Shown in pieces: positions 22,608 to 23,473 of a DNA stretch of 37,500 nucleotides. Below the pieces are notes generated by a model. It searched no databases, was not told the origin of the DNA, and saw nothing but the letters and a program-made list of their open reading frames with translations. The position numbers were made by a program, and so were the translations under genes. Source of the stretch: a virus (Duplodnaviria > Heunggongvirae > Uroviricota > Caudoviricetes); IMG/VR virus record IMGVR_UViG_2713896799_000009, positions 1-37,500 of that record; one strand, given 5' to 3'. The number at the start of each line of letters is the position of its first letter. Within the stretch, counting starts at the first letter, position 1.

Positions 22608-22899
22608 AGCCTCACCTCCGCAAATAACGGATGGCGTAGTTTTACACTGAGAAATGAAAGGGATTTGAAAAGAAAAAACCGCAAAAGCGGGCGAAACGAT
22701 ATATACAGAAAGGAAAGCACTCTATCCAACAAACCACCCACAGTTGATCGGAATAAAAGCAGAGTGCTTATGAATGATCGCCTGCCCGAAGGTTAGTATT
22801 TCTGCACAGCAATTTTGCAAAAAAAGGCGATCATTCATAACTTAAACGTCTTTCAGTCACTCCGGGATTTCCCATCATCGCAGACTGAAAGACTCTGAC

Positions 22900-22974
22900 T
22901 GGAGCGGGCAGCGGGAATCGAACCCGCATCATCAGCTTGGAAGGCTGAGGTAATAGCCATTATACGATGCCCGC
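22900..22974 (-). tRNA. tRNA-Gly (anticodon TCC)
   Basis: Hand-folded cloverleaf: acceptor GCGGGCA/TGCCCGC, T-arm GCGGG-TTCGATT-CCCGC, anticodon loop CTTCCAA, encoded CCA. Confidence 0.7.
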
Positions 22975-22977
22975 ATA

Positions 22978-23053
22978 TGGTGCCGACTGCCGGAATCGAA
23001 CTGGTGACCTACTGATTACAAGTCAGTTGCTCTACCTACTGAGCTAAGTCGGC
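22978..23053 (-). tRNA. tRNA-Thr-like (anticodon TGT), possibly degenerate
   Basis: Acceptor GCCGACT/AGTCGGC, anticodon loop CTTGTAA, T-loop TTCGATT, encoded CCA; the T-stem has two A-C mismatches. Confidence 0.5.
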
Positions 23054-23055
23054 AC

Positions 23056-23132
23056 TGGACCGCCACCGGGGACTCGAACCTCGCACACTCAACTTAAAGG
23101 GTTGACGCTCTTTCCTGATGAGCTAGTGGCGG
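23056..23132 (-). tRNA. tRNA-like element (anticodon-position TTT, Lys-like), possibly a pseudo-tRNA
   Basis: Acceptor CCGCCAC/GTGGCGG, T-loop TTCGAGT, encoded CCA; but C at position 33 and a mismatch in the T-stem. Confidence 0.35.
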
Positions 23133-23133
23133 T

Positions 23134-23209
23134 TGGTGGCCCTTGCTGGATTTGAACCAGCGACCTGGCGATTATGAGTCGCTCGCTCTCACCACTGAGC
23201 TAAAGGGCC
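23134..23209 (-). tRNA. ileZ: tRNA-Ile2 (CAT anticodon, ileX/ileZ-like; tools often label it tRNA-Met)
   Basis: GGCCCTTTAGCTCAGTGGTGAGAGC...CTCATAA...GGTTCAAATCCAGCAAGGGCCACCA is near-identical to E. coli tRNA-Ile2. Confidence 0.8.
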
Positions 23210-23329
23210 GGGCGCAGGATAATAACGTTACGAAATCAATGTTGCAAGCATTCAAAAATCACCTGGTTAAAAATCACCCTTATCTCCTCCACCAGCGCAT
23301 TCACCATGTCTATCCGAGATAAGTGACAC

Positions 23330-23353
23330 AAAAAAACCGCTTGATGCGGGTTT
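23330..23353 (-). terminator. Putative tR'-like terminator in the late leader region
   Basis: Minus strand AAACCCGCATCAAGCGG followed by seven T residues; lies upstream of the tRNA cluster. Short stem; the late promoter itself was not located. Confidence 0.35.
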
Positions 23354-23473
23354 AAGTTGTGTGGCGAAGCGACCACTCTTAACAGATTAAGATAGTTTTT
23401 GCGTACGCGTTAGTGATTTTTTCATAATTATCTGTATCCTGTGGCTATTTCTCTTGCGCAAAGGATGCTTTTG

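Follow-up and report, generated by a model that had tools for sequence, protein, structure and literature searches.

A putative Q-antiterminated late leader with a nested tRNA operon and a structured RNA tail in an Escherichia coli prophage

How is late transcription started and held back in a prophage where cargo genes of the opposite strand and a cluster of tRNA genes lie between the gene of the Q antiterminator and the lysis genes? The question is raised by the stretch of 37,500 nt analysed here (IMG/VR record IMGVR_UViG_2713896799_000009, positions 1 to 37,500; hereafter the window, whose positions serve as coordinates throughout), an E. coli lambdoid prophage to which the sequence NZ_CP035884 is 100% identical across the queried stretch. 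The late strand is the minus strand of the window. Along it lie DUF968, RusA, the Q gene (25361–25002), three opposite-strand genes (23474–24988) and a 265-bp gap, followed by four tRNA genes (23209–22900), a 292-bp spacer, an S21-type holin gene (22607–22392), YdfR, lysozyme and Rz. Homologous loci, where they have to be told apart, are labelled with L and a number (L175 is Sakai Sp5 and L004 is phage Evi).

The best explanation of this region, and one that we consider probable, is that of an ordinary late leader, antiterminated by Q, as in E. coli prophages of the phage-21/933W type, inside which an operon of four tRNAs with its own promoter is nested. Its closest relatives appear to be the leaders of Sp5/933W and DLP12 by sequence and that of phage 21 by layout. 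Current understanding is overturned by none of these results, and the only part that appears undescribed is the structured tail at the end of the tRNA operon.

The late promoter and its putative Q-binding site

The promoter end of the leader and the Q gene comprise the following features:

25002–25361, minus strand: Q antiterminator gene, a 119-aa open reading frame (ORF; 116 aa, 25002–25352, in RefSeq) matching PF06530 at 3.8e-45
23401–23408, minus strand: palindrome GCGTACGC, candidate Q-binding element, position −31 to −24
23384–23389, minus strand: −10 hexamer TAATCT of the late promoter PR′, placed by alignment with Sp5 TATCAT-GATAAG-A(+1)
23361–23376, minus strand: leader hairpin GUGG...CCAC at +2 to +17, part of the nearly invariant block at the beginning of the transcript

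The first-pass annotation had expected the late promoter between the plus-strand cassette and 23353, and it is there that we found a conserved module (23425–23327), which recurs at about 90 places in phages and viral contigs and aligns base for base with PR′ of Sakai Sp5, located at the end of the Sp5 Q gene. The start of Sp5 PR′ has been mapped by differential RNA sequencing, with a terminated 3′ end 258 nt away (Sy et al., PMC7547250). When the Sp5 start is set at the A of TATCAT-GATAAG-A-GTGG, with +1 seven bases after TATCAT, the 3′ end (+257) falls on the last T of the T-run of the second Sp5 terminator. Transferred to the window, this alignment places the −10 element at TAATCT, with three of the six consensus positions matched (T1, A2, T6), and points to a transcription start at A 23377. 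A TAnnnT motif is kept at the −10 position in nearly all of the 51 distinct copies of the module, and the eye-catching TATCTT at 23394–23389 is not. The comparison with the late promoters of phages 21 and 82, suggested as a check by the first-pass annotation, gave no DNA homology; the homologues are the promoters of 933W/Sp5 and DLP12.

The module is closely tied to the Q gene. In the insertion-free relatives L006 and L103–105 it comes immediately after Q, and in Stx2_EH2201 and L103–105 its start is at the Q stop codon or no more than 7 bp from it. In SfIV, mEp460, Stx2a_1447 and about 70 IMG/VR loci with a Q protein 86–100% identical to that of the window, it stands 1.2–3 kb beyond Q, behind inserts. 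The module of K-12 DLP12 is displaced likewise, with nmpC as the insert occupying the equivalent gap between Q and the promoter, and the cargo of the roughly 70 viral contigs (1.2–3 kb) is varied. Since the module abuts Q in the insertion-free loci and is displaced elsewhere, it is native to this type of Q, and the opposite-strand cassette of the window is an insertion that separates Q from its own promoter. The Q gene itself lies ahead of the module on the late strand, has an intact counterpart in the identical prophage of RefSeq and belongs to PF06530, which is the Q21/Q933W family (bioRxiv 10.1101/651190). Its product is 46% identical to Q933W of Sakai Sp5 and 25% identical to Q21, and the late leader is probably one more example of the well-known Q21/Q933W kind.

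The palindrome GCGTACGC is invariant across all loci with a Q like that of the window, whereas at loci where Q is 52–57% identical to it the palindrome reads GCGGTCCGC, and with a Q933W-like Q it reads TTTACGATCGTAAA (the variants lie at 811–824 in L175 and at about 1515–1525 in L006). The downstream leader stays constant while the palindrome changes with the Q subtype. An operator that varies with its protein is what would be expected of a Q-binding element, and for this reason we regard the palindrome at 23408–23401 as the likely Q-binding site. The changes between subtypes are symmetric within the palindrome, which suggests a dimeric recognition code, unlike the site of Q21, which is a direct repeat. 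The transcribed block GTTAAGAGTGGTnnCTTCGCCACACA is nearly invariant across Q subtypes, as is the initial block GTTAAGAGTGGTnnCTTCGCCAC across the copies, and this initial transcribed region is probably where polymerase pauses and Q is loaded.

Terminators and the tRNA operon

Downstream of the start, the leader carries the following features:

23330–23353, minus strand: tR′-like intrinsic terminator AAACCCGCAUCAAGCGGUUUUUUU, stem CCGC 23349–23346 with GCGG 23340–23337, U7 at 23336–23330
23254–23278, minus strand: direct repeat of two copies of GGTGATTTTT, just upstream of the tRNA promoter; one copy is absent in some relatives
23219–23247, minus strand: tRNA-operon promoter TTGCAA-17-TATTAT, followed by a G+C-rich discriminator CCTGCGCCC
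22900–23209, minus strand: four tRNAs (ARAGORN; Rfam tRNA matches of 44–72 bits)
23209–23134, minus strand: tRNA with anticodon CAU (ileZ-like Ile2; tRNA-Ile in RefSeq)
23132–23056, minus strand: tRNA-Lys UUU (ARAGORN)
23053–22978, minus strand: tRNA-Thr UGU (ARAGORN)
22974–22900, minus strand: tRNA-Gly UCC (ARAGORN)
22673–22690, minus strand: second intrinsic terminator, CCGC 22690–22687, loop UUUU, GCGG 22682–22679, U6 at 22678–22673

Counted from +1 at 23377, the stem of the first terminator occupies +29 to +41 and its U7 ends at +48, which predicts a leader RNA of about 48 nt. The tR′-like character that this hairpin had been given on first reading is supported: the hairpin and T-run are conserved, and their placement at about +29 to +48 matches the terminator of phage 21, whose curated record has a terminator at +2 to +50, then two tRNAs and S21. 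Most of the 51 distinct copies have a G+C-rich hairpin here, with stems of differing sequence and a T-run whose end is at about +47 to +50. The hairpin is also shared beyond the reach of this type of Q. Phage Evi, which has a lambda-type Q and a lambda-like promoter (TTGATT/TAAATT/AACGAT), and phages 606R7 and PPompW, with an 82-type Q and TTGCAA-17-TATATT, join their own promoters to the same first hairpin, the homology to the window beginning at 23353 in all three; the relatives with an 82-type Q are L003 and L005, in which a different promoter is joined to this hairpin. Own promoters of different Q types that meet at 23353 indicate that the hairpin is the first element of a shared module which all of them must read through.

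The second hairpin, proposed on first reading as the terminator closing the tRNA cluster, was confirmed at 22690–22673 and, like the first, is conserved in related phages. The tRNA cluster, in each of its variants, is closed by a hairpin with a T-run; the HK639-type tail ends in a different one, which is annotated as a terminator in the HK639 record. A strict scan of the window (four G-C pairs, loop of 3–8 nt, T6) picked up seven sites where shuffled sequences gave an expectation of 0.135. All seven are on the minus strand; the five besides the two terminators lie at 36933, 14174, 12647, 11205 and 1833. Measured against the usual description of an intrinsic terminator (G+C-rich stem of at least 5 bp, loop of 3–8 nt, U-tract of at least 5), the loops of 5 and 4 nt and the U-tracts of 7 and 6 are within range and the stems, at 4 bp, are one pair short. 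Two putative intrinsic terminators are present between the promoter and the late genes, and both are weak here.

The tRNAs appear to be an operon with a sigma-70 promoter of its own. TTGCAA-17-TATTAT lies 10 nt ahead of the first tRNA. Comparison of 27 distinct upstream contexts, that of Sakai Sp5 included, shows the hexamers to be kept (TTGCAA/G, TTGCGG or TTGAAG; TATTAT or TATCAT) and the spacer and flanks to be variable. A primary start site from which the tRNAs are driven has been mapped in Sp5, between tR′ and stx2 (PMC7547250). A search of the literature for descriptions of the ileZ/argN/argO promoter found nothing useful. The GGTGATTTTT repeat upstream may possibly serve as an UP-element or a Fis-like region. 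The four tRNAs read the codons AUA, AAA, ACA and GGA. The best promoter-like match of the region by score lies elsewhere, at 22959–22986 on the minus strand (TCGGCA-16-TATAAT, 10/12), across the junction of tRNA-Thr and tRNA-Gly; its TATAAT is the D-loop of tRNA-Gly, hence the match is probably incidental. Among clusters of the form CAU-X-Thr-Gly (L372, L301, L346, L401, L376, L394) the second position is taken by Lys UUU, as in the window, Phe AAA, Leu UAA, Leu CAG or Arg UCU, and the ARAGORN call for one tRNA of L372, with anticodon UUA, is 'Stop', which would make it a possible ochre suppressor.

From these elements the following course of events may be proposed. RNA polymerase would start constitutively at PR′ (−10 at 23389–23384, start at A 23377) and, without Q, would stop at the short hairpin and U7 of 23349–23330 to leave the leader RNA; a polymerase reading through would meet the second terminator at 22690–22673 ahead of the holin. 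Once made, Q (25361–25002) would bind the palindrome GCGTACGC at 23408–23401 and load onto polymerase paused in the invariant initial transcribed block, and the modified polymerase would pass both terminators, the tRNA genes and the hairpins to transcribe the S21-type holin gene and the rest of the late operon. The Q-independent sigma-70 promoter at 23247–23219 would meanwhile transcribe tRNA-Ile2(CAU), Lys(UUU), Thr(UGU) and Gly(UCC). Polymerases from this promoter carry no Q and would halt at the second terminator, so the lysis genes would be insulated from tRNA expression. The second hairpin would therefore be primarily the tRNA operon's own terminator and, at the same time, a backstop by which the holin gene is protected from tRNA transcription and from any polymerase that leaks past the first hairpin.

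A number of points weigh against this reading. The evidence in the window for the start, the terminated RNA and the binding of Q is drawn from homology and conservation. The placement of the Sp5 start makes use of a 142-base offset assumed between two versions of the Sakai record, which is self-consistent in that it gives the same base. At PR′ the window copy has no convincing −35 hexamer, so that of the two elements the first-pass annotation could not place, the −10 is now located through Sp5 and the −35 still has no credible candidate, which explains the initial failure. Downstream of +1 the same copy shows no −10-like hexamer or clear TAnnnT that could act as a sigma-dependent pause element. 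The first stem of the window has 4 bp where close relatives have 5–7 bp, and the second has 4 bp (−6.6 kcal/mol) where relatives have 5–6 bp; both carry GCGG-T in place of the GCGGG of relatives, which is what shortens each stem (23330–23340 and 22673–22682). A generic terminator scan, which requires at least 5 stem pairs, missed both for this reason. Finally, the homologous first hairpin and U7 of Sp5 lie at +26 to +51 (L175 871–896), yet the reported terminated RNA, the StxS precursor, has 258 nt. Enough polymerase to make it evidently passes this hairpin, and the first hairpin may thus be leaky.

The last point is also the basis of the most serious rival explanation, in which the first hairpin at 23349–23330 is not an effective barrier at all. 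It would belong instead to a small regulatory RNA, or to an RNA of the leader or of Q utilisation, and polymerase without Q would really be stopped by the second terminator or by the action of Rho on the untranslated leader. In Sp5 the PR′ transcript indeed reads past its own copy of the hairpin to end at the second terminator; the window stem, at 4 bp and −5.2 kcal/mol, is at the weak end of the −5 to −12 kcal/mol found across the copies; and RNAs running from PR′ to tR′ can serve as small RNAs, StxS being an example (PMC7547250). On the other side, the hairpin and T-run are held at a fixed distance in most of the 51 copies despite their differing stems, the element at this position in phage 21 is an annotated terminator, and RNA-seq libraries readily lose RNAs as short as about 50 nt, so that the Sp5 data are compatible with partial termination at the first hairpin. 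We consider this rival unlikely, though not to the point of neglecting it, and retain termination at the first hairpin, overridden by Q, as the preferred reading.

Some further observations concern the first hairpin. The hairpin and U7 of Sp5 at +26 to +51 receive no discussion in the StxS paper; they may represent a leaky hairpin or the source of an approximately 50-nt RNA lost from the libraries. In relatives with one extra T in the T-run of the first terminator, RefSeq annotates a 36-aa ORF as 'antiterminator' (WP_086259018.1; L002 6145–6255, equivalent to about 23376–23266 in the window); the equivalent 46-aa ORF of the window has no Pfam match, and the label is probably an annotation artefact. 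The first hairpin (AACCCGCAUCA) is perfectly complementary over 11 nt to the T arm of tRNA-Gly (23342–23352 with 22921–22931). A functional pairing was rejected: the match exists only with the window-type stem, is about as likely as chance 11-mers of the region and is probably due to chance.

The three-hairpin tail of the tRNA operon

Between the last tRNA and the second terminator the spacer is occupied by a row of hairpins:

22848–22893, minus strand: tail hairpin A, an 11-bp outer stem and an inner GGG/CCC stem
22768–22840, minus strand: tail hairpin B, a 16-bp outer stem and an inner stem
22717–22767, minus strand: tail hairpin C

Two inverted repeats had been reported here on first reading, of 14 and 10 bp, and both proved real and slightly longer: a perfect 16-bp repeat (22768–22783 with 22825–22840) and a perfect 11-bp one (22848–22858 with 22883–22893). 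A third repeat, 22715–22723 with 22761–22769, which had been overlooked, completes the row of three. In comparison with shuffled sequences the folding z-scores of the repeat hairpins are −4.3 and −3.7, and that of the whole 292-nt spacer is −5.3, a value matched by no shuffle.

Homologues of the tail were recovered from viral contigs with a gapped 22-base pattern, and the element was found in more than 100 viral contigs and in phage HK639; a scan of genome contigs with a 15-mer from hairpin A gave chance matches only, in unrelated phyla. The tail always starts 6 nt past tRNA-Gly(UCC) or, in HK639, past a remnant of tRNA-Gly, and the gene that follows it varies, which shows that it belongs to the tRNA operon and not to the holin. 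RNAalifold applied to 19 sequences, forming two clades about 75% identical, gave three hairpins with 60 pairs, in which 98.1% of the pair cells are paired, against 40–48% with slid partners, and the covariation score is 0.237 against 0.05–0.09. Ten pairs have changes on both sides. G-U pairs account for 157 of the 1138 pair cells (13.8%), several of them invariant; on the other strand these would be A-C mismatches, so the structure exists only in the RNA of the late strand. Selection therefore acts on the structure of the tail as RNA of the late strand. It counts against the strength of this statement that the compensatory changes separate essentially two clades and so represent few independent events. 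The loop sequences UCUGCGAUGAUGGG, GCAAAAUUGCUGUG and GGGUGGUUUGUUGG are more conserved than the stems.

A count over 5426 complete E. coli genomes gave 526 with the tail, and in none of the 40 records listed is there any annotation beneath the match. Strains LSN03-016011/A and S51 are examples of carriers of this prophage, and strain IHE3034 has at least the tail. A scan of 22300–23600 against Rfam 15 at E values up to 1 yielded nothing credible except tRNA, which removes AgvB, AsxR, STnc100 and other Rfam families as identities of the tail or leader. The Pas small RNAs of enteropathogenic E. coli E2348/69, encoded just upstream of holin genes, were compared at four loci and have no similarity to the region beyond the holin. 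StxS is rejected as well, being located in a segment of about 200 nt of Sp5 that is missing from the window. The tail was also compared with GcvB, and CACACAAC of the leader with the targets of GcvB; in local alignment and duplex energy the scores did not exceed those of shuffles (p = 0.08–0.46), and GcvB as a candidate partner of the tail had no significant complementarity to it.

A quite different explanation of the repeats is that they do not act as RNA at all, being protein-binding palindromes or recombination boundaries in the DNA, decayed tRNAs or a small protein gene. Perfect palindromic arms of 16 and 11 bp could bind dimeric proteins, the element always follows a tRNA gene, and a hypothetical protein of 38 aa that spans hairpins B and C is annotated in some phage records. 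The invariant G-U pairs, which can form in late-strand RNA only, argue against DNA palindromes. Decayed tRNAs were rejected since the hairpins have no significant similarity to the four tRNAs (p = 0.22–0.98) and no Rfam tRNA match, and the protein was rejected since the length of the T-run in hairpin B varies among close relatives and breaks any reading frame. The explanation is thus very improbable.

What the tail does is a matter for tentative proposals. One possibility, which we hold at rather less than even confidence, is that the approximately 230-nt tail (22899–22673; three hairpins, near-invariant loops and the terminator) represents an undescribed family of structured phage RNAs, made constitutively in lysogens from the tRNA promoter, released by tRNA processing and acting in its own right, either as a stable RNA with a regulatory or sponge function or as a cap-like element that stabilises the 5′ end of the long late mRNA after tRNA excision. 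The particular roles, protection of the new 5′ end that the late mRNA would acquire upon excision of the tRNAs or a stable spacer-derived RNA, are our preferred guesses. By position the tail may be likened to the 3′ external transcribed spacer (3′ETS) RNAs of tRNA operons, such as 3′ETS-leuZ of E. coli, which lie between the last tRNA and the intrinsic terminator; the tail would likewise be set free by tRNA processing and carry a terminator hairpin at its 3′ end. The analogy is one of position alone, as the tail is far longer and more structured, with its three hairpins in about 230 nt, and we know of no Hfq binding, processing or target pairing of it.

Cargo, related late leaders and biological meaning

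The insert between Q and the promoter and the first late gene complete the set of features:

23474–24988, plus strand: cargo cassette of three genes (23474–24352, 24356–24601, 24602–24988), after the RefSeq annotation of the identical prophage
22392–22607, minus strand: S21-type class II holin gene, the first late gene, about 85% identical in DNA to S of phage 21

The first cassette gene encodes a protein of 292 aa with a match at 2.8e-53 to PDC-S42, a candidate defence family of PADLOC, and all three genes match PHROGs of unknown function; the middle ORF (24356–24601) has no RefSeq annotation, yet matches phrog_27630 at 8e-57. The cassette is accordingly a candidate for a role in defence. Its position between the Q stop codon and the late promoter is empty in the relatives L006 and L103 and filled with other cargo in other relatives, and the gap looks like a recurrent insertion hotspot. 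The least probable of the alternatives, a Q-dependent late promoter at the end of the Q gene (TTGATG-18-TATCAT, 25033–25004) from which late transcription would run antisense through the cassette to the tRNAs, is favoured by a promoter-like match in the classical place directly behind Q and is very unlikely, given that such matches occur in the stretch at chance level (5 against 6.2 expected), that this one lies inside the Q coding sequence, only 13 bp separating the Q stop from the converging gene, that no palindrome, leader or terminator follows it, and that the module abutting Q in insertion-free relatives is 23425–23327 and not this match.

Among the known systems, phage 21 (Q21, PR′21, Q-binding element, pause element, terminator, tRNA-Asn, tRNA-Thr, S21) has in common with the window a PF06530 Q and the same succession of promoter, terminator within about 50 nt of the start, tRNAs and S21-type pinholin, with the holin DNA about 85% identical. 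It differs in having no detectable DNA homology in the promoter and leader, a good −35 and a direct-repeat Q-binding element where the window has a palindrome, and tRNAs that abut the terminator with no separate promoter and no three-hairpin tail. One of the two closest in sequence, 933W/Sakai Sp5 (Q933W, PR′, StxS, tR′, tRNA promoter, ileZ argN argO, stx2), has a homologous promoter, leader, first hairpin, tRNA promoter and first tRNA, and its Q is related as given above. Unlike the window, it has about 200 extra nt with the StxS small RNA and a second, strong terminator ahead of the tRNA promoter, the palindrome variant TTTACGATCGTAAA, and tRNAs Ile-Arg-Arg followed by stx2 instead of the tail and holin. 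K-12 DLP12 (quuD, nmpC on the opposite strand, late promoter, essD rrrD rzpD) carries the same module about 120 bp upstream of the holin and, as in the window, opposite-strand cargo after Q; it lacks the tRNA operon and the hairpin tail, and its cargo is a porin gene as against a candidate defence cassette. Lambda (PR′, 6S RNA, tR′) follows the same logic of a constitutive promoter, a promoter-proximal pause, a Q site in the promoter and a terminator overridden by Q, with an unrelated Q family (PF03589), a 194-nt leader and no tRNA genes. Q-like control of the DLP12 lysis cassette has been reported, according to refs 27 and 28 as cited in PMC7918800.

From this point of view, the window would show the wiring of a Q21/Q933W-type late switch packed with cargo and a tRNA operon, in which the lysis genes are guarded by two weak terminators in series. 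The palindrome that depends on the Q subtype is a candidate for a simple specificity code in a large family of Q proteins, in which, to our knowledge, the direct-repeat site of Q21 is so far the sole one with a solved structure. About a tenth of complete E. coli genomes carry the tail, and the 40 records listed have no annotation for it; should it prove to be a stable RNA of lysogens, it would be a further case of antitermination leaders and tRNA spacers yielding regulatory RNAs.

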